From a virus, in the IMG/VR virus record IMGVR_UViG_3300045988_007734, positions 1 through 18,184 of that record: 18,184 nt of DNA; one strand, written 5' to 3'. Under the pieces are notes generated by a model. The model did not search any database. It saw only the letters and a program-made list of their open reading frames with translations, and was not told where the DNA came from. Made by a program: the position numbers and the translations under genes. Each line of letters starts with the position of its first letter. The first letter of the stretch is position 1. Below are positions 1 to 16,595 of the stretch, one piece after another.

Positions 1-55
1 TGTTGTTTTTTGGTGGTGTGGTATGATGTGAGTATCAGCCGATAGGGAAAGGAAA
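1..55. repeat. Left inverted terminal repeat (55 bp perfect)
   Basis: Bases 1-55 (TGTTGTTTTTTGGTGGTGTGGTATGATGTGAGTATCAGCCGATAGGGAAAGGAAA) are the exact reverse complement of 18130-18184. Similarity continues, with an A/T-run indel, up to the ATG at 62 (left) and 18124 (right, minus strand). Confidence 0.95.
19..27 (+). promoter_or_regulatory. Extended -10 promoter element (TGGTATGAT) inside ITR-L
   Basis: TGnTATGAT at 19-27. The SD-like GGGAAAGGAAA at 44-54 and the ATG at 62 follow. I see no convincing -35. Confidence 0.5.
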
Positions 56-61
56 TAAAAA

Positions 62-292
62 ATGAACACCGTTGTTTCGGTTGATTGGTGGCACAAGTCC
101 ATCACAGTAGCATTCACTGACTATAATACCGCGCACTATTTTTCGATAGGCAACGCCGTCACCGTCAAGGGCTCGAAGAGGCGTATGCGGCGTGAACTTC
201 GCAGGGAGACGGGCGTGGAATTGTCTAATCTGAAGTATTGGCGGACGGATGGTTCCGTTGATTATTATTGCGCAAATAGGAAAGGAGAATGA
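62..292 (+). CDS. Early hypothetical protein (76 aa, basic central stretch KGSKRRMRRELRRE)
   Basis: ATG preceded by GGGAAAGGAAA. First gene after ITR-L. Its stop overlaps the next start (ATGA). Confidence 0.7.
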   Translation: MNTVVSVDWWHKSITVAFTDYNTAHYFSIGNAVTVKGSKRRMRRELRRETGVELSNLKYWRTDGSVDYYCANRKGE

Positions 293-522
293 TTGTGAGA
301 GGGTGTTCGTATATCATTGTTGATTGGGATGGCCGCGACTATCTCCAAGTGGAGTCGCCGACTCGTAGTTATCGTGTAGTCCATGCCAAAGACTCTTATG
401 AAGCTTTGCGTAGAGTTCTTCAGATTGAAGGAGTCATATTTTACGCTCATGTTAACCTGCTCTCTTCCGAGTATAACGTTCCAAGCGGATATGTGGCTTA
501 TTATTACAAGGTGGTGTATTGA
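289..522 (+). CDS. Early hypothetical protein (77 aa)
   Basis: ATG at 289 preceded by AGGAAAGGAGA. ATGA overlap with the upstream gene suggests translational coupling. Confidence 0.7.
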   Translation: MIVRGCSYIIVDWDGRDYLQVESPTRSYRVVHAKDSYEALRRVLQIEGVIFYAHVNLLSSEYNVPSGYVAYYYKVVY

Positions 523-523
523 T

Positions 524-592
524 ATGTTCGCTTCGGTGTTTGTTATTTGCGCGTGCGTTCTTGGTGTCGCCGTCGTTTTCGGCATGGTTTGA
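524..592 (+). CDS. Candidate 22-aa hydrophobic micro-protein (MFASVFVICACVLGVAVVFGMV)
   Basis: ATG at 524 lies 9 nt downstream of AAGGTGG (508-514), directly after the stop of the previous gene. The peptide is entirely hydrophobic. It is the 3' part of track ORF 383..592; the rest of that ORF overlaps gene 289-522. Confidence 0.35.
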   Translation: MFASVFVICACVLGVAVVFGMV

Positions 593-624
593 GCGTCTTT
601 AGTCCGATAGGTGGTGATGTTGTA

Positions 625-792
625 ATGGTTGGCGTAATTGTTGCCGTTTGCATTCTTTCCATGCTGTTCCTTGTGATGGCTGCTACAGTTTTTTGCGAAT
701 TGCCGCGCAATGCGCGTGACGTTTTTTGTTTTTTGGTCATGCTCGTTGCGGTCGTGGCTGTTGTATTGGTTTCTGTAGTGAAGGAGTTTTGA
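625..792 (+). CDS. Small early membrane protein (55 aa, two predicted TM helices)
   Basis: The track ORF 547..792 starts at a TTG with no SD. The in-frame ATG at 625 lies 8 nt after AGGTGGTG (609-616). The product MVGVIVAVCILSMLFLVMAATVF...FCFLVMLVAVVAVVLVSVV has two hydrophobic segments. Confidence 0.6.
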   Translation: MVGVIVAVCILSMLFLVMAATVFCELPRNARDVFCFLVMLVAVVAVVLVSVVKEF

Positions 793-793
793 G

Positions 794-1042
794 ATGGCTT
801 ATCGTGATATGAATATTGCCGTGTTTGCGTCTCCGTTTGTTGGCGGTGGCGTAAGGTTGTGGTATTGCCCCCGTAGTCAACGTTACGAGTTGAGGTATAC
901 CGTTCAGTTCCGTACGCCGTGTGGTGGTGTGTGTGGCGCGTCGGCATTGTGTGCGTATGACGCTGGAGACGGTTCTCAGGTGGTCGATTTAATACTTGAT
1001 GCTGTTGATATCGCTAATACGCCTCTTTTAGATAGGGATTAG
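794..1042 (+). CDS. Early hypothetical protein (82 aa)
   Basis: Strong SD GAAGGAG lies 6-7 nt upstream of the ATG at 794. The gene is tightly packed with its neighbours. Confidence 0.7.
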   Translation: MAYRDMNIAVFASPFVGGGVRLWYCPRSQRYELRYTVQFRTPCGGVCGASALCAYDAGDGSQVVDLILDAVDIANTPLLDRD

Positions 1043-1044
1043 TC

Positions 1045-1248
1045 ATGTATTTTCGTGGTTGGATTCATTCGTGGACGTGTGGCAACTGTCCTGACGCTGA
1101 TGCATACTGGCGTTTGCGCGCTTTTTGGGCTGGTGCACGGCATAGGCGTAGCGCTTATAATCCGCCGAAACGGTGCTCTGATAATGCTGTGTGGTTAAAC
1201 ATGTGGTTGTATGGTGCTGGGTTTAGCGAGGATACATTGGAGTTTTAA
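1045..1248 (+). CDS. Early hypothetical protein (67 aa, Trp/Cys-rich, CGNC motif)
   Basis: ATG lies 2 nt after the upstream stop, with a weak SD (AGGGA). Confidence 0.55.
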   Translation: MYFRGWIHSWTCGNCPDADAYWRLRAFWAGARHRRSAYNPPKRCSDNAVWLNMWLYGAGFSEDTLEF

Positions 1249-1250
1249 TT

Positions 1251-1781
1251 ATGAAATTGAAGAATTTGAATTTTGATAAAAGCGATAAACGTACGAACTG
1301 GTTTGATGATGGTGTGCTGGATGATGACCGTGTGCGCCGTGTCATTCGTGGCCGTCGGCGTAGGCTGCACTTGCGCGAATATAATCGAGGTGAGGGCGAT
1401 TGGGAAACATTATGCCGTAGTATAACACTGCTCAAGAACTTTTACAAGCCTCAAGGGTCGCAAGTGGCGTTCGCCGACGGGGTGGAACATGCGGCAAACG
1501 TTTGCTTATCACTGTCCCCTTGCACATCCCGCATCGGGGCGTTGGCGCGAACTCAGGACATTGAAATGTTGGGCGGCGTTATTTATGCTCCGGCTATGGT
1601 GGCGTGGTGCGCCGTCTGTCATGTCAAGGGCGCGACATGCTACGAAATGTGCAAGGTTTGGGATGGCAACGAATTTGCTCAGACTGTCGTCAAAATCGCG
1701 TGTCGATGTTTTGACAATCTGACAGACGTGCGGTATACTGATGAAGACATTGCAAGAATGTCGCAACAGCAGCAACAATAA
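1251..1781 (+). CDS. Early hypothetical protein (176 aa) with Arg-rich N-terminal region, Cys cluster and C-terminal QQQQQ
   Basis: GGAG SD upstream of the ATG at 1251. Features are RGRRRRLHLRE, CxxCx6CxxxC (aa 120-134) and CxC (aa 151-153). This may be a zinc-binding regulator; the function is unknown. Confidence 0.75.
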   Translation: MKLKNLNFDKSDKRTNWFDDGVLDDDRVRRVIRGRRRRLHLREYNRGEGDWETLCRSITLLKNFYKPQGSQVAFADGVEHAANVCLSLSPCTSRIGALARTQDIEMLGGVIYAPAMVAWCAVCHVKGATCYEMCKVWDGNEFAQTVVKIACRCFDNLTDVRYTDEDIARMSQQQQQ

Positions 1782-1798
1782 GATAAGGTGGCATGATT

Positions 1799-2113
1799 AT
1801 GTCATACATTAAGAGAGCCAAGCATTACAGTATCGTGCGCGGCATCATGCGCGGTGAGAACGGTGAACTCGTTGATACCGAGGTAGTCGTGAATGGCGCG
1901 TGTCGTACGGCTGACATGGCTATGAAAAGAGCCCGCAAAATCAACAAGGACATGCTACCCACGTCCGCCGAATATCATGCGCAGGCAACGCGCATGGATG
2001 AAGCGATTTATTGGGCTAATTGTGAATTTGGAGATGATACCACCGTTGACTATCCGGGGCCAGTTAACGGCAACGTGGTTGAAGATGATATCATCACCGA
2101 GGAAAATAATTAA
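1799..2113 (+). CDS. Early hypothetical protein (about 104 aa, acidic C-terminus)
   Basis: The track ORF starts at 1793. The ATG at 1799 has better spacing (7 nt) from AAGGTGG (1785-1791). The start is uncertain by 2 codons. Confidence 0.7.
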   Translation: MSYIKRAKHYSIVRGIMRGENGELVDTEVVVNGACRTADMAMKRARKINKDMLPTSAEYHAQATRMDEAIYWANCEFGDDTTVDYPGPVNGNVVEDDIITEENN

Positions 2114-2140
2114 CAACCCCTATAAGGAAAGGCAACACTA

Positions 2141-2578
2141 ATGGCTGACAACGAACTGACCGTAACAAACGGCAACAACTTTTCCGCAAACGGCACCAAC
2201 GCCGTATCCCACTTCTTCGATACTTCCACGATGGACGGGAAAATGGCGCTGTACACCGCCATGCAGACCGCCGATAAGATAGATGAACACCTTAATGAAC
2301 CGTTGCATGTTACCAACGTGCTGGCGCAGGCCATCGAGGTCGCCAATCAGGAGACTGGCGAAATCAATTCGTCTACCCGCGTAGTCGTTCACGCGGAGGA
2401 AGGCGATTTCGCCGCCGCCTCCCCCACGCTGGCGCACGCATTCGGCAATCTGTTCGCCATTTTCGGCACGCCGGACACGTGGAGCCAGCCACTTGCTCTC
2501 AAGGTGGTGGAAAAGAAGAGTCGTCGTGGCTACAAGTTCTTCGACCTTGAACTAGTGTCGGAAGGCAAGCGTAAGTAA
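2141..2578 (+). CDS. Early protein (145 aa); possible ssDNA/DNA-binding replication accessory protein (position-based guess only)
   Basis: AAGGAAAGG SD. It is the last gene before the TP/DNAP pair, the slot occupied by the SSB/DBP genes in phi29. I recognise no diagnostic motif. Confidence 0.75.
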   Translation: MADNELTVTNGNNFSANGTNAVSHFFDTSTMDGKMALYTAMQTADKIDEHLNEPLHVTNVLAQAIEVANQETGEINSSTRVVVHAEEGDFAAASPTLAHAFGNLFAIFGTPDTWSQPLALKVVEKKSRRGYKFFDLELVSEGKRK

Positions 2579-2606
2579 CACGATTGTCCGCACCGTATGA
2601 TATCGT

Positions 2607-2632
2607 GGCAACGTCCCTATAGGGATGTTGCC
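2607..2632 (+). promoter_or_regulatory. Stem-loop (11-bp stem, TATA loop) in the 2579-2698 intergenic region
   Basis: GGCAACGTCCC-TATA-GGGATGTTGCC, with one G-U pair. Confidence 0.6.
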
Positions 2633-2640
2633 GCCAGACT

Positions 2641-2680
2641 CACCCCCCGCCGTTTCCATCCTTGCGGCGAGGGGTGTTTC
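2641..2680 (+). terminator. Candidate intrinsic terminator/attenuator upstream of the terminal-protein gene
   Basis: CACCCCcCGCCG-12 nt loop-CGGCGaGGGGTG gives 6+5 bp with one mismatch, followed by TTTC. The T-tract is short. Confidence 0.45.
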
Positions 2681-2698
2681 ATACTCACAGGAGGAACC

Positions 2699-3643
2699 GT
2701 GGCAAAACGCAAAAACCGTCGACGCGCTGACAATCTGAAACGCAACGCCGCAATCAGATCGGCACAGGTACGCCGGGAACGAGCAGTCAGAGATTACAGC
2801 GCCGGACGTCTACCCAAGCAAATTACTGAAACGTTCTTGGGGAATCTCAGTGCCCAACAGCTTGAGCAGGTGGCACGACGCATTGGGCGGGAATTTGGAG
2901 AACAACAGCAAGCCTTAAGGGCGCAGGATAACGAGCCGTATCAGGTCGTTCCAGACGTTCATGTTACGAAACTTGACCGTGAGATGGCGTCGCGTCCGCT
3001 GATAACCGATGCGGAAATCGCCGCAGCCCCGTCGAAACGTCGGAAAACGTTACGGCAGCAGCAGCGCCGCCGAGTTGAGGCACGGCAGAAAATCAAGCGT
3101 GCTCAACAATTCGAAGCCTTGAGTATGGCCCGTTATACCGTAGGTGAGATGCGTGAGATGGAACGCGCAGGGGAGTCTCCGTTTGATGTGCTGGGCACTC
3201 ATACGGTCGGCGGTTCGGCACGTGACGAACTCATGCGAAGCCGTGCGAACGTGTTCGGCACAGAGCGTGGAATAAGCCATGCACGCGCGATGATTCGAGG
3301 GGGGAGCCGTAGGAGGCTTGAACGGGAGATGATTGAATACGCCGGACTTATTGGACGTGCGCCGCTAAGCGCGGGAACTAGGCGTATTCCCGAGGACGAG
3401 GGTGTTTCGGATTTCGATAAGGTCGCGCAACAGCTCGAAGCGTTCGATTCCAGCGTAGCTCAAAGACTCGCTTCTTTGTCTAACCGTCAAAAACGATGGC
3501 TGATAAACAACACGAATTTCAGCGTTGTCGTGCGCGAGGCTACATGGTATAATGACAAGGCGCACAAATGGGAGACCAAAGCGGACGCGGGAGATGTAGA
3601 GACACGACTTGATGAATGGATGGCCAGCGCAATAAGACACTAA
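2699..3643 (+). CDS. Terminal protein (TP) candidate, 314 aa
   Basis: It lies immediately upstream of the protein-primed DNAP, like gene 3 before gene 2 in phi29. The N-terminus is strongly basic (VAKRKNRRRADNLKRNAAIRSAQVRRERAVR) and Arg-rich helical segments follow. A GTG start at 2699 lies 4 nt after AGGAGGAA. The upstream in-frame extension to 2597 runs through two stem-loops and has no SD. The function rests on synteny, size and charge only. Confidence 0.55.
   Translation: MAKRKNRRRADNLKRNAAIRSAQVRRERAVRDYSAGRLPKQITETFLGNLSAQQLEQVARRIGREFGEQQQALRAQDNEPYQVVPDVHVTKLDREMASRPLITDAEIAAAPSKRRKTLRQQQRRRVEARQKIKRAQQFEALSMARYTVGEMREMERAGESPFDVLGTHTVGGSARDELMRSRANVFGTERGISHARAMIRGGSRRRLEREMIEYAGLIGRAPLSAGTRRIPEDEGVSDFDKVAQQLEAFDSSVAQRLASLSNRQKRWLINNTNFSVVVREATWYNDKAHKWETKADAGDVETRLDEWMASAIRH
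3545..3553 (+). promoter_or_regulatory. Possible internal extended -10 (TGGTATAAT) about 105 nt upstream of the DNAP start
   Basis: TGGTATAATGAC matches TGCTATAATGAC at 5112-5123 in 11 of 12 positions. It lies inside the TP coding sequence and may be fortuitous. Confidence 0.3.
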
Positions 3644-3658
3644 AAAAAGGATGGAATC

Positions 3659-5119
3659 ATGCGAGAGCGTCGAACGGCGGCAACAGACGGCGCAACACTA
3701 TTGACGGATGACGGTATAACGCCATTGACGGCGAATGCCGTTATCCGCCTGACCATGCTAGACCATCATACGCGCGTATGGTGCGCTCACGGATGGCAGG
3801 ATATCAAGCCCATAGCCGCTGAACTATTAAAACGACTGCCATTGCAATCGAATCCGGCAAAGGATGGCGTTTGGGGTACGTTCAACATTCGCGGTCATTT
3901 CTATAGTTTCCGCGTGCGCATGGGCGGCATCACCGTGGATTTTCTGGACGTGCGCAACATCACACGCGATGACGGATTGAATGTTTCGCGTGAAGCATTT
4001 GGTGGCGCGGACGACTTGGAAACCACGTGGAATATCGCGCGGGAATGTGAGGCCCTGAATCTCAAGGGTACAACCATAGCGTCTATGGCAATGGGCGATT
4101 ACATCGGCGGAGATTACGCCGGATTTAAACGCAATTTTCCGCCATTGGATAAAGCGGAATATCACCGGATGCGCCGCGCGTACTATGGGGCGATAGTGTA
4201 CAGCAGGCCGGGCGAATATCGGGATTGCAGGAGCTGGGATGTGAACAGCCTCTATCCGAGCATCATGCGAGACCTTGCCATGCCGGTAGGCGCTCCTGTA
4301 TGGTATGGGGGAGAATATCATTATGACGCCGATTATCCCCTGCATATCGATGTTATCGCGTTCGACGCGCGACTGAAACCGGGAAAAACGGCGACGCTCA
4401 CAAATATCCTACCAGTATGGGGATATGAGGGCGAACGTCTGGACAGTACGCTAGGGGTCGTCACCATGCCCGTGACCGACGTGGATTGGCAGACCTTGAC
4501 GGAAAACTATGATGTCCATGTGTGGGATTATATCGGCGGTTGGAAATTCCGTAAATCGCATGGACTTTATTACAGCTACGTTGACAAATGGTTCCACGTG
4601 AAACAGACCGCAACCGGAGAGCGTCGGCAAATGGCGAAACTATTACTAAACTCGCTGGTAGGGAAATTCGGGGCATCGCTTTATCGGCCTATGCTGCATC
4701 CGAAGCCTTCCGGCGACGGCGGCGTGGATTTTACAGTGGACAAACCTGAGTCAACCAACTCACTCGCATGGCTACCGACCGCCGCCTATGTCAACGCCTA
4801 CGGTCGGCAAATACTGTCCCGCGCAATGAATGCGAACGCCGACCGCGTGCTCTACGCCGACACGGACGGCATGATATTGGACGGACTGGATGCGCCCGCA
4901 GGTATCGAAACGGACGATAAGAAACTAGGCGCGTGGAAAAACGACCACACCTATGGAAAACTTCGTATCCTCGGCAATCGCAAATACTGCGGTGTGGAAA
5001 CGGACGGCGATACCGTCATGAGGTTGAGTGGCGTGCATCGAGCAGCCCCCATACCCTACGACGACTTCCTGCCGAGGTCACGCCATGTCAACGATGACGG
5101 ATGTTTTTTTGTGCTATAA
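3659..5119 (+). CDS. Family-B, protein-primed (phi29-type) DNA polymerase, 486 aa
   Basis: Motif A DVNSLYPS (aa 194-201), motif B KLLLNSLVGKFG (327-338), motif C LYADTDG (398-404) and KxY (RKY, 441-443). Inter-motif spacings are within 1-2 residues of phi29 DNAP, so TPR1/TPR2-sized insertions are retained. The pre-motif-A stretch FKRNFPPLDKAEYHRMRRAYYGAIV parallels phi29 FKKVFPTLSLGLDKEVRYAYRGGF. SD AAGGATGG. Confidence 0.92.
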   Translation: MRERRTAATDGATLLTDDGITPLTANAVIRLTMLDHHTRVWCAHGWQDIKPIAAELLKRLPLQSNPAKDGVWGTFNIRGHFYSFRVRMGGITVDFLDVRNITRDDGLNVSREAFGGADDLETTWNIARECEALNLKGTTIASMAMGDYIGGDYAGFKRNFPPLDKAEYHRMRRAYYGAIVYSRPGEYRDCRSWDVNSLYPSIMRDLAMPVGAPVWYGGEYHYDADYPLHIDVIAFDARLKPGKTATLTNILPVWGYEGERLDSTLGVVTMPVTDVDWQTLTENYDVHVWDYIGGWKFRKSHGLYYSYVDKWFHVKQTATGERRQMAKLLLNSLVGKFGASLYRPMLHPKPSGDGGVDFTVDKPESTNSLAWLPTAAYVNAYGRQILSRAMNANADRVLYADTDGMILDGLDAPAGIETDDKKLGAWKNDHTYGKLRILGNRKYCGVETDGDTVMRLSGVHRAAPIPYDDFLPRSRHVNDDGCFFVL

Positions 5120-5120
5120 T
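5112..5120 (+). promoter_or_regulatory. Perfect extended -10 promoter (TGCTATAAT) overlapping the DNAP stop codon
   Basis: TG-C-TATAAT at 5112-5120, preceded by a T7 run. The predicted transcription start is near 5127. Confidence 0.55.
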
Positions 5121-5126
5121 GACCGG

Positions 5127-5290
5127 TAGCGGGGTGTGCGTCCCAAGCTGATTCAATGGCCCGACCGGTGGGCAATCGGTAAGGCGATTCGGTCGGATGT
5201 AGACGTGCGTAGCCAACGCCCATTGACGGCGAGGGAACCCGCACAGCCTAGCAATCCGGCACGGCAGCGTGATTGCCGCCGTGCCATTTT
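5127..5290 (+). ncRNA. Candidate structured non-coding RNA or leader (about 164 nt) with a three-way-junction-like fold
   Basis: There is no plausible ORF in 5120-5305. The region is bounded by the extended -10 at 5112-5120 and a terminator at 5258-5290. A long closing helix and two internal hairpins can be drawn by hand (see findings). Confidence 0.5.
5258..5290 (+). terminator. Intrinsic terminator at the early/late boundary
   Basis: GGCACGGCaGC-GTGATT-GCcGCCGTGCC gives 10 bp plus one A/C mismatch, followed by ATTTTACTT. It ends 16 nt before the scaffold gene ATG. Confidence 0.6.
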
Positions 5291-5305
5291 ACTTAAGAGG
5301 TGATT

Positions 5306-5647
5306 ATGGACGACACCGAAAATGATGACAAGCCGGACACCACGCCCGACACCGAGCCGGACGCGAACGCCGACGACAATACGCCGAACCCGGAGCCTGA
5401 AACGCAGGACGACGCCGAGCCTGAAGACGCGGGCGACGACAAAACCGCCGACATGGCCGGCCGGTTGAGCGCATTGGAGGCGACCGTGGCGGAACTGTCC
5501 AAAACCGTCGAGGCGATGCGCGACGCGGCAGCAGACCACGTGCTGCACGACGGCCCCGATGATGACGCGACGCCGGAATCGGCTGAAATGACCGACGACG
5601 ACTACAACGGCACCTACAGCACGTTCGACGACTTGTACGAAGACTGA
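5306..5647 (+). CDS. Scaffolding protein candidate (113 aa, highly acidic with a central helical LSALEATVAELSKTVEAMRDAAA segment)
   Basis: It lies immediately upstream of the major capsid gene, as phi29 gp7 does. The protein is small and acidic with a coiled-coil-like core. ATG at 5306 follows AAGAGGTGA; the track start at 5300 is a GTG. Confidence 0.6.
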   Translation: MDDTENDDKPDTTPDTEPDANADDNTPNPEPETQDDAEPEDAGDDKTADMAGRLSALEATVAELSKTVEAMRDAAADHVLHDGPDDDATPESAEMTDDDYNGTYSTFDDLYED

Positions 5648-5669
5648 CAATTAGGAAGGAACAACTATC

Positions 5670-7400
5670 ATGGCAACCACCCCAGTGGTGACGCCGAAGC
5701 AGCAACTGCGCCCGCTCACCGAATTCAACAACGCCCAGATTTTGAACATGATTCGCAACGAGGCGTCACCAGAGTACCAGAGGCGCATGCCCTCGGCCAC
5801 TCAGATGAATATGGACAGGCAGATGGCCACACTTATGTCGTCCACCCAGCTGAAGAACGAATTTTACTCGGCATTGGTGAACCGTATTGGCGGCACCTAC
5901 GTGAATACGTGGCGGTGGAACAATCCGCTCAGCGTTTTCCAGCGTGCATCGCAGGCGTATGGCGACACGTGGCAGGAAATCGCCGTGGGAATGCCGCTTG
6001 CACAGGTCTATGACCCTGACGCGGAGTACCTCGGTGCGGACAACTTCCGCAAGTGGAAAATCGACGTGGATTCACTCTATCACCGTCTGGACTTTGCTCA
6101 CTGGTATCCTGCGACCACGGATGACAAGACGCTCCAGCGTGCCTTCACGTCCGAAAACGGTTTGGCATCGCTCACCTCCCAGATTCTCACATCCTGCTAT
6201 AACGCGGCTGAAGTAGACTTGTTCGAGGCTCTGTGCCATCAGTTCGTCGAGTACGCGAAGCTCGGCGGATATTGGCGCGTCCACATGGCCAAAGACCTGA
6301 ACAACATGGGCAGTTCGGAAACCGACGCCCGCGACATGTTGCGTCAGATTCGCGCATGGGCGGACACGCTAAAATTCGTTTCCACCAAGTACAACGCCCG
6401 TCACATGCCAACCTTTGCCCGCCCGGACGAACTCGTGCTGTTCTGTTCGCCAGAAGTCAAGTCGGCGCTTGACGTGCAGGGCCTTGCCACGGTATTCCAG
6501 CGTACCGACGCCGAGCCGACCATCGACCGAATTATAGTCATTCCGCAGGACCGTTTCGGCATGAATGGCGTGCAGGCCATTCTGACGACCGACAAGTTCC
6601 TGATTGACATTCCTGTCATCAACGAGATGACCCAGCAGACCAACCCCGTCAACATCAATTCGGTCAACCATTATCTGCATGTCCAGCACATTATTTCGGT
6701 GTCCGGCTTCGCTCCGGCTGTGATGTTCTGGACTGGAGCAGGTTCTACCGCCAACGTGGTGCCCCCTGCCGGAACGCAGGCCAAGACGCCGACATTCGAG
6801 CTCAAACTCGCCATGTACGGTGGTGGCACGGAAACCCCGAGCAATGTGGCGCGCGGTGGCGCGGTGCAGGTCACCGCCGATACGACTATCGGCAACGACG
6901 GTACCGCCACGTTCCGTTCGAACGCGGTTGAATATCGCATTGGCGATACTGTTAAGCCGAAGAGCGATTACACGTATATCTCGCCTACCGGCGTGCTGGT
7001 GGTCGGCCTTGACGAACCGAACACCACCATCCCGATTACCGCAACCGCCTTGTACACGAACCCGGCGACGCCGGAAGTGCCGGGCACCGTGTCCGCAGCT
7101 CTGGACGTGCCGGTGGTCGGTGATGGCGTCATTGGCTTCAACCCCTCCATCATCGCGTCCATTGCCGTGACCGTTCCGAACGTGACCGTAGAACATACGG
7201 CGCAGGCTACTGCCGTGGCGACCATGATTGACGGACGTACCGCCGACGTGACCGCACAGGCCGCATGGACGTCCGGCACTCCGACGAGCGCCACCGTATC
7301 CGAGTCCGGCATGGTGACTGGCGTCAAGGCAGGCAGCTCTGATATCACCGCCACGCTGTTCGGCGTGTCCGGTAAGAAGAGTGTGACCGTGACCGCGTGA
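5670..7400 (+). CDS. Major capsid protein (phi29 gp8-like) with C-terminal Ig-like/Big_2 decoration domains
   Basis: YNAAEVDLFEAL and NHYLHVQHIISVSGFAPAVMF resemble phi29 gp8 YNSAEVDEYEYM and NYYLHVWQTLSASRFANAVAF. The last ~80 aa (ASIAVTV...TAQAAWTSGTPTSATVSESGMVTGVKAGSSDITATLFGVSGKKSVTVTA) form a typical Big_2 domain, which phi29 gp8 also carries. SD AGGAAGGA. Confidence 0.9.
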   Translation: MATTPVVTPKQQLRPLTEFNNAQILNMIRNEASPEYQRRMPSATQMNMDRQMATLMSSTQLKNEFYSALVNRIGGTYVNTWRWNNPLSVFQRASQAYGDTWQEIAVGMPLAQVYDPDAEYLGADNFRKWKIDVDSLYHRLDFAHWYPATTDDKTLQRAFTSENGLASLTSQILTSCYNAAEVDLFEALCHQFVEYAKLGGYWRVHMAKDLNNMGSSETDARDMLRQIRAWADTLKFVSTKYNARHMPTFARPDELVLFCSPEVKSALDVQGLATVFQRTDAEPTIDRIIVIPQDRFGMNGVQAILTTDKFLIDIPVINEMTQQTNPVNINSVNHYLHVQHIISVSGFAPAVMFWTGAGSTANVVPPAGTQAKTPTFELKLAMYGGGTETPSNVARGGAVQVTADTTIGNDGTATFRSNAVEYRIGDTVKPKSDYTYISPTGVLVVGLDEPNTTIPITATALYTNPATPEVPGTVSAALDVPVVGDGVIGFNPSIIASIAVTVPNVTVEHTAQATAVATMIDGRTADVTAQAAWTSGTPTSATVSESGMVTGVKAGSSDITATLFGVSGKKSVTVTA

Positions 7401-7406
7401 TATAAT
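7398..7406 (+). promoter_or_regulatory. Extended -10-like element (TGATATAAT) overlapping the capsid stop codon
   Basis: It is part of the exact 12-mer GTGATATAATGG (7397-7408), which is repeated at 9815-9826. It abuts the hairpin at 7407-7434, so promoter activity is uncertain. Confidence 0.35.
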
Positions 7407-7434
7407 GGGAGGGTAGCCGATTGGCTACTCTCTC
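7407..7434 (+). terminator. Stem-loop immediately after the capsid gene (12-bp stem including G-U pairs, GATT loop)
   Basis: GGGAGGGTAGCC-GATT-GGCTACTCTCTC. There is no clean U-tract. Confidence 0.45.
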
Positions 7435-7450
7435 TCACGGTGTGATGCAG

Positions 7451-7495
7451 GACAAGGCCCGAAGCGTAATCTACGTGAGCGCTCCGGGCCTTGTC
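7451..7495 (+). terminator. Strong GC-rich stem-loop (11-bp perfect stem) upstream of the tail-knob gene
   Basis: GACAAGGCCCG-23 nt-CGGGCCTTGTC. There is no U-tract. The 3' arm ends 5 nt before the GGAGGA SD at 7501-7506. Confidence 0.5.
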
Positions 7496-7508
7496 ATACC
7501 GGAGGACA

Positions 7509-9818
7509 ATGATGATTGACGACGCTAACCCTTACGTGGAATCTAATTTTTCGTGGGCGGAATGGACGCCTAACACGACACTGAAACTCTGCCGTGTACC
7601 GTGGGATGCTTCATATCGTGATGTTGTGCGGTTTGTTTCACGTGAAACGCAGCGAGAATGGTTCGACAAACTGGGTGGAGTGGAATGCCGTCCGGCCACC
7701 ATGCATATTTTCGGCGCCCCCGTTCGCATCGACATGCCATTCAACCAAGCGTCAAACTACAATTATCTTGTGGCCGTCAACGATTACCCCGAATTGGAAT
7801 CGCCACGCGCATGGTATTACTTTATTGAATCCGTGGAATACATCAACGCGCACACCACACAGCTCACGCTTATGCTGGACGTATGGCAAAGTTTCGAGTT
7901 TGACGTGAGTTTCGGTAGTTGCTATGTGACGCGCGGTCATATCGGCATAGCCAATGAACGCCAGTGGGATGATTACGGGCGTACCACGCTTGCACTGCCG
8001 GAGGGTTTGGACACCGGCGCGGAAACCGTCATTACCTCACAGTCATATACGCCGCTTGTGACCAGCAAGCCCGTGCAGCCCGGGTTTAACTCGCCAACCT
8101 TGGATTATGGTGTCATTGTCGTGGCCACGACCGACCTTGTGGCGTCGGGCGGTAGTACCGAAAAACCGTCGTTGAAAACCGCGCAAGGCTCACAATTCGA
8201 GAATCAATCCAATGGCGCGGGGATTTATTATTTTGACACCGCCGACGATTTTACGCGCGTTATGCAGGCAGGTAGTTCGTACCCGTGGGTCACTCAGGGC
8301 ATTACGGCGATTTACGCCATCCCCAAAATCAGCGCCGACTATATCCGCAGCGCAGGCCATGAGGTGACGCAATTTTTTGGCAACGACGTGGCCGGTGTGG
8401 TTAAAGGCCACGTCTACACGTTCCTGTGGGAAGCAAAGAGCGATAACCGATATGATGATATTGTTTCCATCAAGAATTTTCGTAACAATTTTAACATTCC
8501 GAGCCGGTATCGCAATTTGAAAAAATTGCAATGCTACCCGTATAGTGTCGTGGAATGTTCATGCTTGAATGGCTCGAATGTCATCTACCGGCCCGAGGAT
8601 ATCCAATCCAATGACCTGACCATACGTGAAACGTGGAATTACGCGCCCCCGTCCCCTCGGCTGAATTTTTACCCGGTGGACTACAATGCGGGAGGCGCAG
8701 CTACGGTCAGCTCCCCGTCCGGGAATGGCACAGGTCTGCCGATTGATGGCGGGGAAATGCTTAATGTCAGTTTCGGTATCACAAACTTTCCCCAGTTTAT
8801 GGCGGTCAACAATGGGGCCGCGCTTGCTATGGCGAACAGCGCGTACTCTCGCGCTTACGCGGAGCAGTCTGCCGGTTGGGCGCAGCAAAAAGCGACCATG
8901 AGCGCAGCCAACGCATTATCTCAGGCCGGCACTGCGATTCGCACTCAGCAAGAGATGACCCAACTGGGTATCACGAACCGTAACGCGCTGAACGCCATCG
9001 CAGCCAACTCACTTAACCAGTCGTTGGCTATCGGGCAGGCGAGCACCAATGCCATGACCAACTTGAACGTATCGCAAAACAACGCGCGAACCACGTGGGG
9101 GTTGATTTCCAATGCGGGGAACGCATTGGCGTCGGGGAGCGTGGCCGGACTGATTGGCGGCGCAGTCGGCGCCATCGGCGGCGTCGTGCAGAACGACATT
9201 GCCAACAAGGGACTGTACGCCAGCCGTGACATTGCCAACGATACGGCAGCGGCGAACACTGCCAACAGTGTGGCAACCAATGCGGCGCAAACCTCGCAAG
9301 CGAACACTTACGCGCAACGCGCCCAGCAGATTCAGAGCACGTCCAGCGCCCTGATGGCCGGGCAAAACTATCGACTGGCCACGCGCTTTGCCGAAGGTGA
9401 CTATGAAAACTCGATAGCCGGGATTAACGCTCAAGTCCAGCAAATGCAGATGACTCCGCCGACTACGAGCGGTTCGGCGGGCGGCGACTCGTTCAACCTC
9501 GCTAACGGTATTATGGGCATATTGGTTCGTTTCCGCACGTGCGCCCCCAGCGCGTTGCGTTCGGTGGGCGAGTTCATGCTACGTTTCGGGTATTTTGTCC
9601 AGCGGTTCGTCACCCCGCCCGCAAGTCTGCAATGCATGGAGAAATTCACATACTGGCAAATGCAGGAATGCTACATTAAAGGTACACTGCCCGAACAGGC
9701 GCGGCTGACCATTAAGGGCATGTTCGAGCGAGGCGTCACCGTATGGAGCAGACCGGAGGATATCGGCGTGACCGACTGGGCGGACAACGAGCCACTGCCG
9801 GGCATTGGTTACGAGTGA
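7509..9818 (+). CDS. Tail knob / distal tail tube protein (phi29 gp9-like), about 769 aa
   Basis: The N-terminal pattern NYNYLVAVNDYPELESPRAWYYFIESVEYINAHTTQLTLMLDVWQSF parallels phi29 gp9 [44 protein letters not shown]. Its position between capsid and portal matches phi29. The start is ATG 7509 or 7512 after GGAGGA; the track start at 7491 is a TTG inside the hairpin. Confidence 0.8.
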   Translation: MMIDDANPYVESNFSWAEWTPNTTLKLCRVPWDASYRDVVRFVSRETQREWFDKLGGVECRPATMHIFGAPVRIDMPFNQASNYNYLVAVNDYPELESPRAWYYFIESVEYINAHTTQLTLMLDVWQSFEFDVSFGSCYVTRGHIGIANERQWDDYGRTTLALPEGLDTGAETVITSQSYTPLVTSKPVQPGFNSPTLDYGVIVVATTDLVASGGSTEKPSLKTAQGSQFENQSNGAGIYYFDTADDFTRVMQAGSSYPWVTQGITAIYAIPKISADYIRSAGHEVTQFFGNDVAGVVKGHVYTFLWEAKSDNRYDDIVSIKNFRNNFNIPSRYRNLKKLQCYPYSVVECSCLNGSNVIYRPEDIQSNDLTIRETWNYAPPSPRLNFYPVDYNAGGAATVSSPSGNGTGLPIDGGEMLNVSFGITNFPQFMAVNNGAALAMANSAYSRAYAEQSAGWAQQKATMSAANALSQAGTAIRTQQEMTQLGITNRNALNAIAANSLNQSLAIGQASTNAMTNLNVSQNNARTTWGLISNAGNALASGSVAGLIGGAVGAIGGVVQNDIANKGLYASRDIANDTAAANTANSVATNAAQTSQANTYAQRAQQIQSTSSALMAGQNYRLATRFAEGDYENSIAGINAQVQQMQMTPPTTSGSAGGDSFNLANGIMGILVRFRTCAPSALRSVGEFMLRFGYFVQRFVTPPASLQCMEKFTYWQMQECYIKGTLPEQARLTIKGMFERGVTVWSRPEDIGVTDWADNEPLPGIGYE

Positions 9819-9824
9819 TATAAT
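9816..9824 (+). promoter_or_regulatory. Extended -10 element (TGATATAAT) placed 6 nt upstream of the portal ATG
   Basis: TATAAT at 9819-9824, then GGCAAT, then the ATG at 9831. The 12-nt intergenic gap has no SD, which is consistent with a leaderless portal mRNA. Confidence 0.45.
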
Positions 9825-9830
9825 GGCAAT

Positions 9831-10781
9831 ATGAGTAGGTCTAAAAAGAATCGAGTTGGCGGCGCGTTGCACCCACGTGGCAATTATGCGAAAGCACGCG
9901 CCGCCACGCTTGATGACATGTATTTTCATTTGCTGATGGAACTCGCATTGAACCGTTTCAGTTGGCGCGGATTGCCGCCCACCGTGGACGAACGTTGGCT
10001 GGAAATATGTCTGTGCGAATATGGTTGCGCGTTGTTTTTCGAAGACAAGCGTATCGGCAGGTTCCTTGTAACGCAGGCCGGTTATCAAGGTCGGCTGAAC
10101 GTGTACAATAATCCAACATGCTTCGAGCCGGTAGGCGTCAACTACCATTATAAGCAGCTCAAAGCAGGGGCGGAATGCATTCCTATCTGGGATAATCGAA
10201 TGCGCGTCGGATTCAAGCCGACATTATGGCAATACGCACGACGACTTGCCGATATCGACAAGGCGTATGATGTGAATTTGGAGAGTCTTAAGCTGCCTAC
10301 CATCATCACTGCCGACCCCCGCACAAAACTCACCGTGCAGAACATGCTTCAGCAGCGTCAGGACGGTCAGGACTATATTATCGGATACGATTCGCTCGAC
10401 CCCGGCAGCATGTTTCAACCGTGGCCGAACACTACGCCTTACCTGCTGGACAAGTTCATCCAACAGAAAGCGCAGGTCACTAACGAAGTGCTAGGATATC
10501 TCGGCATCCAATCATCCGGCACGGAGAAAAAGGAACGGCTTATCTCCGACGAAGTGGCGCAAGCCAACGAGAAAGTAGATGTGTTCCGACTGAGTTTCCT
10601 GAAGGCGCGGCAGACGGCGGCAACTGAGATTAACCGATTATGGCCGCAACTGAACGTGTGGGTGGAGTATGCTGACGCGCAAAGCTCCGGCGTGCCCAAC
10701 GCGCTTGACTCTAGCGCTTCGGGCACGACGGATGTTGACATGCCCGCATCATACGACGCGGGCACTGGAGGTGTATTGTGA
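9831..10781 (+). CDS. Portal (head-tail connector / upper collar) protein, phi29 gp10-like, 316 aa
   Basis: FSWRGLPPT (phi29 FEWENLPPT), VYNNPT, and GTEKKERLISDEVAQANE (phi29 LEKKERMVTDEVSSNDE). The size matches gp10 (309 aa). Confidence 0.9.
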   Translation: MSRSKKNRVGGALHPRGNYAKARAATLDDMYFHLLMELALNRFSWRGLPPTVDERWLEICLCEYGCALFFEDKRIGRFLVTQAGYQGRLNVYNNPTCFEPVGVNYHYKQLKAGAECIPIWDNRMRVGFKPTLWQYARRLADIDKAYDVNLESLKLPTIITADPRTKLTVQNMLQQRQDGQDYIIGYDSLDPGSMFQPWPNTTPYLLDKFIQQKAQVTNEVLGYLGIQSSGTEKKERLISDEVAQANEKVDVFRLSFLKARQTAATEINRLWPQLNVWVEYADAQSSGVPNALDSSASGTTDVDMPASYDAGTGGVL

Positions 10782-11566
10782 CACAGGATTTTAGCGCCTA
10801 CGCTATGGAGACTCCCGGCGAGTACACCGAAACCCTCGGTAATCTTATTGCATTCGGATATGACACCGACGACAAGCTGCATCTTAGCGCCGACTATTAC
10901 CCGATTTACCGCGAAGACCATCGCGCAGAGTTGAACGAGAAGATCGTCCGCCATTACACGCTTAGGGAGATTGGTCAGGAAACCGCCCAACAGTTCATTT
11001 TTTACTTGGGAATGACAATGGCGGAAATCATGCCCTATTTTAACGAGCGCTACCGGACGCTGGACATGGAATACAACCCGTTGGATTCCATGGACATGAC
11101 GACGGACAGCGAGAGCGGCAGCGAATCACAGTCGTCCGGCAAAGCATCCAGTACGCAGGATTCAACCAGCTCCAGCAATAGCAAGTCGGACAATTCCAGC
11201 ACCACCACGTCGAAGAGTTTTGACAGTGACGTGCCTCAGACCGGCGTCATAGGCGATTTCGCCCGCTACGCCTCACATGCGAACGAATCGCAGGCGGACA
11301 GCTCCGGCACCGCGTCCAGTTCGCAGGATTCAAGCAGCCACACCACCGCGCAAAGCGCGACCGACTACCAACACGATTCAAGCAATTCCAAAGGCAAAAG
11401 CCACGTGACCGGGCGTAGCCAGAGCGCTATGAGCCTGATTCAGGAATACCGGCAGGCGATTATCAACGTGGACATGGAAATCGTGCGGAATCTTGAGCCG
11501 TGTTTCATGCAGGTATGGGGCACGTATGATACAATCTTTAACAACCACCATAACTATGGAGGGTGA
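10778..11566 (+). CDS. Lower collar protein (phi29 gp11-like), 262 aa
   Basis: GTGA start/stop overlap with the portal gene, with GGAGG 8 nt upstream. IYREDHRAELNEKIVRHYTLREIGQETAQQFIFYLGMTMAEIMPYFNERY fits the conserved N-terminal block of Picovirinae lower collar proteins. There is a long Ser/Thr/Asp-rich central segment. The position matches phi29. Confidence 0.7.
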   Translation: MTQDFSAYAMETPGEYTETLGNLIAFGYDTDDKLHLSADYYPIYREDHRAELNEKIVRHYTLREIGQETAQQFIFYLGMTMAEIMPYFNERYRTLDMEYNPLDSMDMTTDSESGSESQSSGKASSTQDSTSSSNSKSDNSSTTTSKSFDSDVPQTGVIGDFARYASHANESQADSSGTASSSQDSSSHTTAQSATDYQHDSSNSKGKSHVTGRSQSAMSLIQEYRQAIINVDMEIVRNLEPCFMQVWGTYDTIFNNHHNYGG

Positions 11567-11574
11567 AAGTAATC

Positions 11575-12210
11575 ATGGTCGACATTAATGCACTAATCCC
11601 ACGGCAACGCTTGTTCGACGGAGTGCCCACGTCCGTACCGTTCACCTACCGGGACGGCTTGACGACATTGCAGTTAATTGAATGCCTGAAGCATAATCTA
11701 GACACGCTTCAGTGCGACCTTAGCAGGTTGGAAGACGCCACCACCGACCTCGCGACATCTGTAGACAAGGCTCTGGCGGATACCGTGGCACAGCTCAATC
11801 ATGACATGGCCGCGTTGCGTGCGGAATTGCTCTCGCTGATTCATGAGATGGAGCAGCAGGGTGCGGCGACGTCGCCGGTCTACGGCATCACGCAACCGCT
11901 CGGGCAAGTACTGGGCGGCATGTACGACAATTTGCGCAATCATGGATTGTTCTTCGGTGATTATGATTCCATGCAGTTGACCGCGCGGGAATACGATGGG
12001 CTCACCCTCGGAGCGCGTGAATATGACTTGCGCGCCACTGCTGTGGACAATTGTGTCCCCGGCGATTTTCCGGGCCGCTCACAATTCCCCTACGGCAAGA
12101 GCATGCCTGAGAATCCACCCGCCGACATGTCGTTCATCACACAATCGGAAGCGGATGCACGATATGTCGAACGCAATCCAACCGCAGACAATTTCGACAA
12201 GAAAGGATAA
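11575..12210 (+). CDS. Virion structural protein, coiled-coil (neck/tail-associated), about 211 aa
   Basis: It sits inside the tail module. It has a helical heptad-like region (DLSRLEDATTDLATSVDKALADTVAQLNHDMAALRAELLSLIHEME) and a short tandem motif LTAREYDGLTLGAREYDL. The start is ATG 11575 or GTG 11563. Confidence 0.6.
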   Translation: MVDINALIPRQRLFDGVPTSVPFTYRDGLTTLQLIECLKHNLDTLQCDLSRLEDATTDLATSVDKALADTVAQLNHDMAALRAELLSLIHEMEQQGAATSPVYGITQPLGQVLGGMYDNLRNHGLFFGDYDSMQLTAREYDGLTLGAREYDLRATAVDNCVPGDFPGRSQFPYGKSMPENPPADMSFITQSEADARYVERNPTADNFDKKG

Positions 12211-12215
12211 CCACC

Positions 12216-12635
12216 ATGACCGCAACCAACAAGACCACGAATTACAAACTCAGCCAGTTCGTCGGCACCGACCGACCTACGTGGCTCGGGGACTACAACG
12301 GCGATATGTCGAGAATCGACACGCAACTGAAGCAGAACGCGGACGACATCGCGTCGGCAACAGCAGGCAGTCTCACCTCAGTACACCATACCGCCGACCT
12401 TACCGGCGACGGTACGTCAGGCTCACCACTTGGCGTGGCGAGCACCATCGCCAAGAAAACCGATATCCCGGACGTGAGCGGATTCGCCACCACTTCCGCT
12501 CTCACCTCGGGGCTTGCGGCCAAGGTCGATAAAAACGCCTCACAGCCCAGCACGCTCGGATTGACGGCGACCGAACTTGATTCGATGTACAAGGACGCGA
12601 ACGGCATCGTCCGCGTTGGCCACGCTAAAGCCTAG
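12216..12635 (+). CDS. Short tail appendage/fibre protein (139 aa) sharing an N-terminal adaptor with the next gene
   Basis: SD AAAGGA. The N-terminus MTATNKTTNYKLSQFVGTDRPTWLGDYNGDMSRIDTQL aligns with the N-terminus of the 12652 gene. Confidence 0.7.
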   Translation: MTATNKTTNYKLSQFVGTDRPTWLGDYNGDMSRIDTQLKQNADDIASATAGSLTSVHHTADLTGDGTSGSPLGVASTIAKKTDIPDVSGFATTSALTSGLAAKVDKNASQPSTLGLTATELDSMYKDANGIVRVGHAKA

Positions 12636-12651
12636 AAAAAGGAGAATGACA

Positions 12652-14100
12652 ATGTCCACCACACAACATACCGGCCACTACAGTCTGCCGACATTTGGCG
12701 ACAATCCAAACGACCGCCCGTCGTGGCGCGGCGACTTCACCGACGCTATGACGAAAATCGACAATCAAATGTACGCCAATGCTACCAACATCACCACGGC
12801 GACGGCAGCGGCGAACAACGCGACCACGGCGGCAGGCAAGGCTAAGACGGCGGCTGACAACGCCGCAAGCCTCGCGCAGGCCAATAAGAACGATATTGAC
12901 GACTTGGACGGCTATTTCGCTAAGCTCGGCGTCACGTCGGAATCAACCGCGCAGCAGCTTATGGATACCATCAACGGCAAGGCGGAGGATACCGAGCTGA
13001 CTTCGCTTAAGGGCACGGTATCTTCACTGTCCAGCACGGTTAATACCAAGGCGAACACCTCCGACGTGTACACCAAGGGTCAGGCCGACACGACGTTTAC
13101 CAAGCAGGGCGGATATTCCGGCACCGCGCAGCAGTTGAGCCAGCGTATTCAGGCGCTGGAGACGACACCGCAAGACCAGCCGCCTATCTGCCTCTGTATC
13201 GGAGACAGTTACGCCAATTCGTCCAATAGTGTCAACCCGGACGGGACGGACGCGACCAAGTGGCCTACACAGCTCCGCAACATCATCGGCGGCGAATATC
13301 GGGTGAAAAACTATGCCGTGACCGGCGCGGGATTCAACGTGTCTGGTAAGACGTTCACCGACCAGATTGACGACGCCTACAGCGCTTCGGCCATCGACAA
13401 TGATAATGTGGCAATCATCATTATCGGAGGCGGTCGGAATGACATTGGCACCACTCCGCAGATGGAATCATATGCGGACGCGACGTTCTCCAATGCGCGT
13501 GCCAAGTTCCCCAAAGCACGCATCATCTCCGTGCCCATGCTCTGGCATAATGCGGGCATGGACATGTATGGTCGGCAGAAGGCTGCGGGCGTTGCGCAGG
13601 CTGCTGCCAAAAACGGCGTGGAAAACGTTGATTGGGCTTGGACGTGGAATGTCGGCAACGACTCCAATTTCCCCCACGGCGACGTTCACCCCAACGCGAA
13701 CGGCTCGAAGGTCATTGCATCCTATATGGCCTCCGCTATCCGAGGCACCTATACCGGACGCTACGAAGCGGCCACCCTATCTTCATCCAACGGCCACGTG
13801 CATAGCAATATCGTGGCGTCTGGTGGCATGGTTTTCGCAACGCTTTGGGGCGAAGATCCATCCACAAATGCCGAACTGCAAGCAGGTCTTACGTTCCCGA
13901 GTTGGGCCAGGGTGGCCCCCGGTTCCACTCCGAACCAGTTCCGAACGTGGGGTGCGGGCCTAACTAACTCCGGTTCCGCCATCAGCGGCTGGCTGTTGAC
14001 TAATGTGTCGAACTCGGACACGTCCGGCGCCCCTAAAATTAGCTACTTCGGAACCACTGCCGGCGGTAATAATGGCTGTTTCGTTTGCTACCCATGGTAA
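12652..14100 (+). CDS. Tail appendage/fibre protein with a C-terminal-half SGNH/GDSL-type hydrolase domain, 483 aa
   Basis: ATG 12652 lies 6 nt after AAAGGAGA; the track ORF start at 12577 overlaps the upstream gene. The N-terminus is MSTTQHTGHYSLPTFGDNPNDRPSWRGDFTDAMTKIDNQM. An Ala/Thr/Asn-rich helical stalk follows. The SGNH blocks are ICLCIGDSYANS (GDS), AVTGAGF, IIIGGGRNDIG (GxND) and GDVHPNANG (block V-like). Confidence 0.8.
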   Translation: MSTTQHTGHYSLPTFGDNPNDRPSWRGDFTDAMTKIDNQMYANATNITTATAAANNATTAAGKAKTAADNAASLAQANKNDIDDLDGYFAKLGVTSESTAQQLMDTINGKAEDTELTSLKGTVSSLSSTVNTKANTSDVYTKGQADTTFTKQGGYSGTAQQLSQRIQALETTPQDQPPICLCIGDSYANSSNSVNPDGTDATKWPTQLRNIIGGEYRVKNYAVTGAGFNVSGKTFTDQIDDAYSASAIDNDNVAIIIIGGGRNDIGTTPQMESYADATFSNARAKFPKARIISVPMLWHNAGMDMYGRQKAAGVAQAAAKNGVENVDWAWTWNVGNDSNFPHGDVHPNANGSKVIASYMASAIRGTYTGRYEAATLSSSNGHVHSNIVASGGMVFATLWGEDPSTNAELQAGLTFPSWARVAPGSTPNQFRTWGAGLTNSGSAISGWLLTNVSNSDTSGAPKISYFGTTAGGNNGCFVCYPW

Positions 14101-14123
14101 ACGTTTCACGTGAGACATAACCC

Positions 14124-14152
14124 ATACCCCACGGCTCGAAGCCGTGGGGTAT
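14124..14152 (+). terminator. Stem-loop terminator after the appendage genes (12-bp perfect stem)
   Basis: ATACCCCACGGC-TCGAA-GCCGTGGGGTAT followed by the A/T-rich ACTATTATATAT. Confidence 0.6.
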
Positions 14153-14162
14153 ACTATTATAT

Positions 14163-15428: not shown

Positions 15429-15431
15429 TAT

Positions 15432-15467: not shown

Positions 15468-15473
15468 GTCGTG

Positions 15474-15482: not shown

Positions 15483-15489
15483 GGATACT

Positions 15490-16587: not shown

Positions 16588-16595
16588 GGAATAAC

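Follow-up and report, generated by a model that had tools for sequence, protein, structure and literature searches.

The viral genome analyzed here (IMG/VR record IMGVR_UViG_3300045988_007734, positions 1 to 18,184; this whole stretch of 18,184 bases is hereafter called the window) is a complete linear phi29-like phage genome, and it contains a structured, conserved RNA between the gene for a protein-primed DNA polymerase and a putative scaffolding gene. We interpret positions 5112-5290 as the gene for a prohead or packaging RNA (pRNA) of a phi29-like phage, with a probability of about 0.72. The RNA is likely a new pRNA-like variant that falls outside the Rfam family of known pRNAs. An initial annotation had read the promoter, leader and hairpin of this region as a lambda PR'/6S-like or put-like antitermination switch in front of all late genes, with pRNA as a competing idea; of these two, pRNA is likely the better explanation. 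The coordinates of the features are collected in Table 1.

Folding of the region revealed a free energy of -78.6 kcal/mol for 5125-5295 (z = -3.2). Domain I is closed by a long A-helix, in which 5129-5159 pairs with 5220-5252 with internal loops, and which closes a three-way junction with a C/E arm and a D hairpin. The C-helix is formed by CCGACCG (5161-5167) and CGGUCGG (5190-5196). Above it, a CE bulge of 7 nt (GUGGGCA, 5168-5174) lies on the 5' strand of the arm, followed by an E-helix of 4 bp (AUCG, 5175-5178, with CGAU, 5185-5188) and an E-loop of 6 nt (GUAAGG, 5179-5184). A single strand of 10 nt separates the C/E arm from the D hairpin, while a 5-nt linker (AAUCC) joins domain I to a 3' hairpin, after which an A (5286) and UUUU (5287-5290) follow. 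The window RNA therefore displays the anatomy by which a pRNA is recognized, with a domain I of ~120 nt containing an A-helix, a three-way junction joining the A-helix, the C/E arm and the D hairpin, and a 3' domain II hairpin behind a short single-stranded linker.

At least 80 close relatives of the window phage are present in IMG/VR, with capsid proteins of 91-97% identity. The region was retrieved from 80 relatives at 82-96% identity, giving 78 distinct sequences (alignment A1), across which the whole cassette is retained. Domain I is 93.3% identical in about 78 relatives. In the polymerase, scaffold and capsid genes on either side, identity is 68-74% at third codon positions and 90-99% at the other two. 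Domain I is thus conserved far above the neutral rate, and the RNA is under selection. Analysis of alignment A1 indicated that 99.2% of the structure cells are standard pairs and that eight pairs carry compensatory changes; none of 500 shuffles reached the observed covariation, and pairing fell to 28-44% in controls with slid partners. The A-helix (helices 1-3 of A1) is 99-100% paired, with most of its pairs invariant and one compensatory, and its counterpart in each of the sister clades described below also covaries. Compensatory changes are also found in the D stem, at pairs 90/101 and 94/100 (UA 49, CG 15, UG 14), and in 5 of the 12 stem pairs of the domain II hairpin. G-U pairs occur solely when the + strand is read, which identifies + as the transcribed strand. 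A 55-aa open reading frame (ORF) at 5136-5303 was considered as a protein-coding gene and rejected, because 1-nt indels occur in it among the relatives and because of the compensatory pairs.

Successive pRNA molecules of phi29 are linked by pairing between the CE bulge of one and the D-loop of the next (PMC5066667, PMC12670572). The window RNA has a GGC within its CE bulge that is complementary to a GCC within its D-loop. The GCC is invariant in alignment A1, and the complementarity is kept in 77 of the 78 relatives, the remaining one having GGA, with the adjacent bulge bases free to vary. In one lineage (L063, L031 and L052), the D-loop has changed to UUUGCCGA and the complementarity has widened to six pairs (GGCAAA/UUUGCC; P = 0.008 on shuffled loops). 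The CE bulge and D-loop are therefore complementary, with at least two G-C pairs, as expected of a pRNA, and covariation between the two loops is seen in the BD811P-like sister clade described below.

We folded the phi29 pRNA (from EU771092) in the same way as the window RNA. Comparison of the two revealed that both have a domain I of ~125 nt, whose 5' and 3' ends pair in an A-helix, and a three-way junction. Their CE bulges, of 9 nt in phi29 and 7 nt in the window, both lie on the 5' strand and are complementary to the D-loop, which measures 5 nt in phi29 and 7 nt in the window (range 5-7 nt). The phi29 E-helix (CUGA/UCAG) with its loop UUGAGU has the same dimensions as that of the window, 4 bp and a 6-nt loop. 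At the 3' end, phi29 has a 13-nt linker, the domain II hairpin and UUUU, and the window has a 5-nt linker, a hairpin and A-UUUU. The two promoters agree as well: promoter A1, which drives the phi29 pRNA, has in its -10 region the same 9-mer, TGCTATAAT, as the TGcTATAAT of the window. Unlike the phi29 pRNA, the window RNA is G+C-rich, its C-to-D junction strand is 10 nt long instead of UUU, and its loop-loop pairing is GGC/GCC instead of AACC/GGUU.

The gene content of the window is that expected of a phage with a pRNA, for which we looked for a gp10-type connector, a gp16-type ATPase, no small terminase or nuclease, and protein-primed replication. The window encodes the connector, the gp16-type ATPase (the match spans positions 6-319 of the 331 in the Podovirus_Gp16 profile), a DNA_pol_B_2 polymerase and a Phi29_MCP capsid protein, and inverted terminal repeats (ITRs) of 61 bp, 97% complementary, are present at both genome ends. 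The connector, the ATPase and protein-primed replication are shared with phi29. In translation, the connector has a basic N-terminus (MSRSKKNRVGG...). The basic N-terminus of the phi29 connector binds pRNA (see PMC1636484, in part). In the window phage, the connector would be the expected docking site of the RNA and the gp16-type ATPase the expected partner of the A-helix. The region upstream of the scaffold ATG is the longest non-coding gap of the genome and the sole one of more than ~110 nt; no other candidate pRNA locus was found in the window phage.

A GenBank search returned no phage that is near-identical to the window or close to it at the DNA level. Among cultured phages, those of Bifidobacterium have the most similar capsid proteins (36-42% identity), followed by Curtobacterium and Arthrobacter phages and a 'Rhizobium' phage, and the host is probably an actinobacterium, probably Bifidobacterium. 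Two of the Bifidobacterium phages, BD811P3 and BadAztec1, share the gene order of the window and carry a structured gap at the same place, of 228 nt (z = -3.2) and 178 nt (z = -2.8), respectively. We analyzed 73 distinct sequences of the BD811P-like clade and 9 of the Mendel-like clade of Arthrobacter phages. The BD811P-like RNA shows the same topology as the window RNA, with 98.4% of cells paired and 23 compensatory pairs, and 0 of 500 shuffles reached the observed covariation. Its loop-loop complementarity has the reverse polarity, the bulge (U/C)(G/A)CCA facing the D-loop UGG(C/U)(G/A) in a five-pair helix that is 98.4% paired; at pair 57/103 of this helix, GC occurs 59 times, GU 8, AU 6 and AC 0, and the A-U cases fall in about four separate lineages as counted on the alignment. 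This topology recurs in the Mendel-like clade, where 21 of 43 pairs are compensatory and the E hairpin, CCCC-UUGAAU-GGGG, is nearly invariant, and the Curtobacterium phage Prophecy has GGGG-UUGAAA-CCCC; both E-loops resemble the UUGAGU of phi29. The complementary loops are CAGCU/AGCUG in Mendel and UUGCA/UGCAA in Prophecy.

The sister clades also separate the RNA from the capsid genes. All 73 BD811P-like members have, 3' of the RNA, a T-rich tail (5-7 T in 8) and then a second TGnTATAAT box, which is also conserved. The RNA gene thus stands alone in this clade, and a separate promoter serves the capsid genes. In some phages of the Mendel clade, an extra ORF lies between the RNA and the scaffold gene. 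These two arrangements argue for a conserved function in trans. They bear directly on the possibility that the RNA is purely a cis-acting 5' leader of the scaffold/capsid mRNA, serving as a stabiliser, in translational control or as an attenuator. The RNA does form the 5' end of that mRNA in the window clade, and the promoter and very stable hairpins at 7398-7498, before the tail gene, suggest that structured leaders may be a habit of this phage. However, a cis-acting leader is difficult to reconcile with its separation from the mRNA in the sister clades, the ribosome-binding site (RBS) AAGAGGUG is not sequestered in the fold, and a stabilising hairpin would need nothing as elaborate as a three-way junction whose complementary loops are conserved. 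We therefore consider a purely cis-acting role very improbable.

A second alternative is a trans-acting small RNA with a role other than packaging, such as host take-over, mRNA regulation or a decoy, placed at this locus for the timing of its expression. Strong purifying selection, covariation, the independent unit in the sister clade and the lack of a sequence match to known pRNAs would all suit such an RNA. It would nevertheless have to copy the entire pRNA architecture by coincidence, including the clade-specific loop complementarity and the dimensions of the E arm, and this in just those phages that possess a gp10/gp16 motor and lack another candidate locus for a pRNA, which makes it unlikely.

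Several observations weigh against the assignment as a pRNA. The Rfam family RF00044 (Phage_pRNA) gave no match in the window, BD811P3 or BadAztec1, while phi29, as the positive control, scored 145 bits; across Rfam, no family matched the whole window at E ≤ 1, and 5100-5310 (211 nt) gave chance matches only, at E ≤ 10. The loop complementarity of the window itself comprises 3 bp and is reached by 33% of shuffled loops (P = 0.33). This single-sequence test is weak for phi29 as well (P = 0.12), and since 3 bp in one sequence are not significant, the case is built on conservation and covariation. As far as sequence goes, the complementarity is compatible both with pairing between molecules and with pairing within one molecule. 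The genomic position also differs: the window gene is located in the middle of the genome, after the DNA polymerase gene and before the scaffold and capsid genes, and is co-transcribed with the capsid operon or forms its leader, whereas the phi29 gene lies at the left end under an early promoter. The host is actinobacterial for the window, whereas pRNA has been described as peculiar to Bacillus phages (PMC11476376, PMC12670572). For BadAztec, the two near-identical sequences available do not discriminate between a nested GGUGCC/GGUGCC helix and a pRNA-like internal fold. Finally, a covariance model of the BD811P-like RNA (R1) misses the window RNA and those of BadAztec, Prophecy, Mendel and RHph_N3_8, with default settings or with filters off. 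We therefore claim no statistical homology between the clades; their relationship is suggested by synteny and architecture.

The promoter of the cassette is a perfect extended -10 element, TGcTATAAT, with no convincing -35 element; it overlaps the final codons and the stop (5119) of the DNA polymerase gene, and transcription is predicted to start at ~5126-5128. The box TGnTAT[AG]AT is present in 75 of 75 aligned relatives. The promoter, leader and hairpin described in the initial annotation are thus all in place. Its observation that no promoter separates the stem end (5285) from the scaffold ATG was borne out, since no promoter-like site was found on the + strand from 5121 to this ATG in the window, and no promoter box between hairpin and ATG in any of the 78 relatives. 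Hairpin and scaffold ATG are 20 nt apart in the window (median 20 nt, range 18-46 nt, in the 77 relatives with a locatable start codon). The scaffold/capsid mRNA must therefore pass through the hairpin, and the need for read-through that the annotation had deduced holds.

The regulated form of this idea proposes that the hairpin terminates transcription efficiently at early times and that a Q-like factor or a put-like leader provides late read-through, possibly alongside a pRNA. Besides the need for read-through, it draws support from the stability of the hairpin, which equals that of two obvious operon-end terminators (-23.6 and -22.1 kcal/mol for 14124-14152 and 17885-17912), and from the co-directional genes, which show no obvious difference between early and late promoters. 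The T tails of both operon-end hairpins are imperfect, so termination efficiency is not inferable from sequence, and we did not rely on the argument that a weak T-tract means no termination. In addition, the apical sequence GCGUGAUUGC of the hairpin (5267-5276) is conserved, being fixed in both Bifidobacterium-phage clades (the window clade and the BD811P-like clade, loci L083-L162) while the lower stem covaries. This hints at a function beyond termination and suggests that the hairpin is bound by something.

On the other side, the longest T run after the stem is at most 2 in 66 of the 78 relatives, and the UUUU of the window is an outlier even among its nearest relatives. This erosion of the T-tract across the window clade is more in keeping with a leaky hairpin than with a strong, factor-requiring terminator; a generic terminator scan found a weak 5-pair version of the hairpin only. 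No Q-like, N-like or other recognizable regulator is present among the early proteins, which gave no regulator match against Pfam and PHROG, the sole matches being to SSB families for 2141-2578. The annotation had proposed the Cys-cluster protein encoded at 1251-1781 as the trans factor. Its homologue in BD811P3 makes this doubtful, because the capsid genes of that phage have a separate promoter and thus no use for read-through; searches with the Cys-rich protein gave no match in PDB (E ≤ 1), Pfam or PHROG. This early protein has 176 aa, an Arg-rich stretch and several Cys, and is 35% identical to the BD811P3 homologue. Downstream late genes have conserved promoter boxes of their own, exact TGATATAAT sequences at 7398 before the tail-knob gene and at 9816 before the connector gene. 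With the like boxes at 3545 and in both ITRs, they make the cassette one of several promoters and not a single late gate, so that its placement ahead of all late genes was an overstatement.

Comparison with the two model systems leads in the same direction. The window resembles lambda PR'-qut-tR'/6S in its strong constitutive-looking promoter, its short hairpin-ended transcript and its late genes that need read-through. Unlike in lambda, no Q-family protein is found upstream, no Q-binding or pause element is present (among the first transcribed bases, UAGCGGGGUGUG, there is nothing resembling TAnnnT, that is, no -10-like pause element), no efficient terminator is evident from a T-tract that is not conserved, and the sister clade replaces read-through by a second promoter. 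Selection acts on the window transcript, which is highly structured, whereas no structure-dependent role is known for lambda 6S. The HK022 put RNAs are ~70 nt long with two stem-loops, occur at both PL and PR, and act only in cis. The window RNA is similar to them as a structured RNA just 3' of a promoter and before a terminator; it differs in being a single three-way junction of ~125 nt and in being separated from the downstream genes in related phages, in 73 of 73 BD811P-like phages by its own terminator and the second promoter, so that a put-like role in cis cannot be the conserved function. The anatomy of the RNA is that of phi29 prohead RNA and not of qut or put. The antitermination reading thus stands in its cassette and its read-through but not in its Q- or put-like switch, and regulated antitermination appears unlikely.

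In the mechanism that we propose for a pRNA, the host RNA polymerase would start at ~5127 from the extended -10 promoter, and the first ~125 nt would fold into an A-helix that closes the three-way junction with the C/E arm and the D hairpin. The GGC of the CE bulge would then pair with the D-loop GCC of a neighbouring molecule, giving an RNA ring. This ring may sit on the basic N-termini of the connector at the prohead, dock the gp16-type ATPase and serve in packaging of the protein-primed genome. The 3' hairpin would be the counterpart of phi29 domain II and would end or protect the free RNA. In the window clade, this hairpin may be leaky or a processing site, so that the same promoter would also yield the scaffold/capsid mRNA, which would start 20 nt downstream, through read-through that we infer to be constitutive and not regulated. 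Scaffold and capsid are the two proteins that proheads need in the greatest amount, and one strong promoter could serve the RNA and both of them. The BD811P-like clade would reach the same outcome by a terminator and a second promoter.

To our knowledge, pRNA is the only RNA that forms an integral part of a viral DNA-packaging motor, and it is a workhorse of RNA nanotechnology. It is known (Rfam RF00044) from Bacillus phages of the phi29, GA-1 and DLc1 groups. A 2024 review describes it as unique to Bacillus phages (PMC11476376), and the 12 new pRNAs reported in a 2025 survey were obtained with Infernal, starting from the pRNAs of phi29, GA1 and DLc1, all of them Bacillus phages (PMC12670572). 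We found no earlier report in the literature on pRNA in combination with Bifidobacterium, Arthrobacter, Curtobacterium or Actinomyces phages, and within the limits of this search the window RNA is an unreported pRNA variant. A broader reading, which we hold tentatively and put at slightly below even odds, is that pRNA is ancestral to the phi29-type motor and has persisted, unrecognizable in sequence, in phi29-like phages of actinobacteria (Bifidobacterium, Arthrobacter, Curtobacterium and probably others), where its gene would invariably lie immediately 5' of the scaffold gene. Within the window clade, the RNA would have become the leader of the capsid operon, where the hairpin would set the ratio of free pRNA to capsid mRNA by partial termination or processing. 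If so, phi29 domain II would gain a concrete function, the balancing of free pRNA against capsid mRNA from one promoter, and the capsid-operon layout makes the old question of the purpose of domain II directly testable.

With a second, sequence-unrelated lineage of pRNA, from actinobacterial phages of gut and soil, it would become clear whether the RNA is an ancestral part of the motor. Such a lineage would also provide natural covariation, from which it could be learned which of the junction, the E-loop and the loop-loop pairing matter, and would supply G+C-rich, probably very stable three-way junctions. The 'gap' of ~155-230 nt 5' of the scaffold gene in these phages merits annotation as an RNA gene. 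In the published genomes of the cultured phages, the RNA gene is missing from the records, and a gap of 155-228 nt stands upstream of the scaffold gene.

Table 1. Positions of the RNA cassette, genes and other features in the window and in related phages
Feature	Genome	Position	Strand	Remarks
Left ITR	Window	1-61		TGGTATGAT -10-like box at 19-27, +
Exact TGGTATAAT	Window	3545-3553		In the 3' end of the putative terminal-protein gene; ~105 nt 5' of the DNA polymerase ATG
Protein-primed family-B DNA polymerase	Window	3659-5119	+	Pfam DNA_pol_B_2, E = 7.5e-32
Extended -10 promoter TGcTATAAT	Window	5112-5120	+	TG 5112-5113, TATAAT 5115-5120; exact match to TGNTATAAT
Domain I of candidate prohead RNA	Window	5129-5252	+	Minimum free energy fold, alignment A1
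C/E arm	Window	5161-5196	+	Fold and alignment A1
GGC in CE bulge	Window	5171-5173	+	Proposed partner of D-loop GCC (loop-loop 'kissing' contact)
D hairpin GCG-UAGCCAA-CGC	Window	5207-5219	+	D-loop GCC at 5212-5214
Domain II / terminator-like hairpin	Window	5258-5285	+	28 nt, G+C-rich, -21.5 kcal/mol; then A-UUUU
RBS AAGAGGUG and ATG of scaffold gene	Window	RBS 5295-5302; ATG 5306-5308	+	
Putative scaffolding gene	Window	5306-5647	+	ATG at 5306
Major capsid gene	Window	5670-7400	+	Pfam Phi29_MCP, E = 8e-86
Second promoter and structured RNA cassette	Window	7398-7498		TGATATAAT; its TGA is the capsid stop codon; box in 67/71 relatives
gp9-like tail knob gene	Window	7491-9818	+	Pfam
TGATATAAT box	Window	9816-9833		TGA is the tail-knob stop codon; box in 51/52 relatives
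Connector (gp10-type portal)	Window	9831-10781	+	Pfam Phage_connector, E = 3e-42
Operon-end hairpin	Window	14124-14152	both	Perfect 12-13 bp; after the GDSL-lipase tail gene
gp16-type encapsidation ATPase	Window	15466-16587	+	Pfam Podovirus_Gp16, E = 4e-44
Operon-end hairpin	Window	17885-17912	both	Perfect 12-13 bp; between the convergent amidase and right-end genes
Right ITR	Window	18124-18184		TGGTATGAT -10-like box at 18158-18166, -
Unannotated gap upstream of scaffold gene	L081 (BD811P3)	4656-4883		
Unannotated gap upstream of scaffold gene	L082 (BadAztec1)	5779-5956		
Unannotated gap upstream of scaffold gene	L165 (Prophecy)	3985-4178		
Unannotated gap upstream of scaffold gene	L166 (Mendel)	4934-5105		
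Unannotated gap upstream of scaffold gene	L167 (RHph_N3_8)	5589-5743		
Small gene	L165 (Prophecy)	3742-3984		
Small gene	L166 (Mendel)	4676-4933		Annotated in Mendel as ribbon-helix-helix DNA-binding protein
Small gene	L167 (RHph_N3_8)	5310-5588		

Nearly every gene of the window lies on the + strand. Pfam also identified genes for a phi29-type SSB, a holin and an amidase, and no tRNA or tmRNA was found in the window. The -10-like boxes within the ITRs are probable early promoters that fire inward from each end, and the TGGTATAAT box at 3545 is kept in 74 of 76 relatives. In the Curtobacterium, Arthrobacter and 'Rhizobium' relatives, a small gene lies between the DNA polymerase gene and the RNA gene; it is absent from the window and may encode a transcription regulator of that junction. 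Directly before the tail-knob gene, 7407-7498 forms two very stable hairpins (-53.7 kcal/mol, z = -7.3). The TGATATAAT at 9816 ends 7 nt 5' of the connector ATG, and the intervening bases (ggcaat) contain no Shine-Dalgarno sequence. The connector mRNA may thus be leaderless, a common feature of mRNAs in Actinobacteria.

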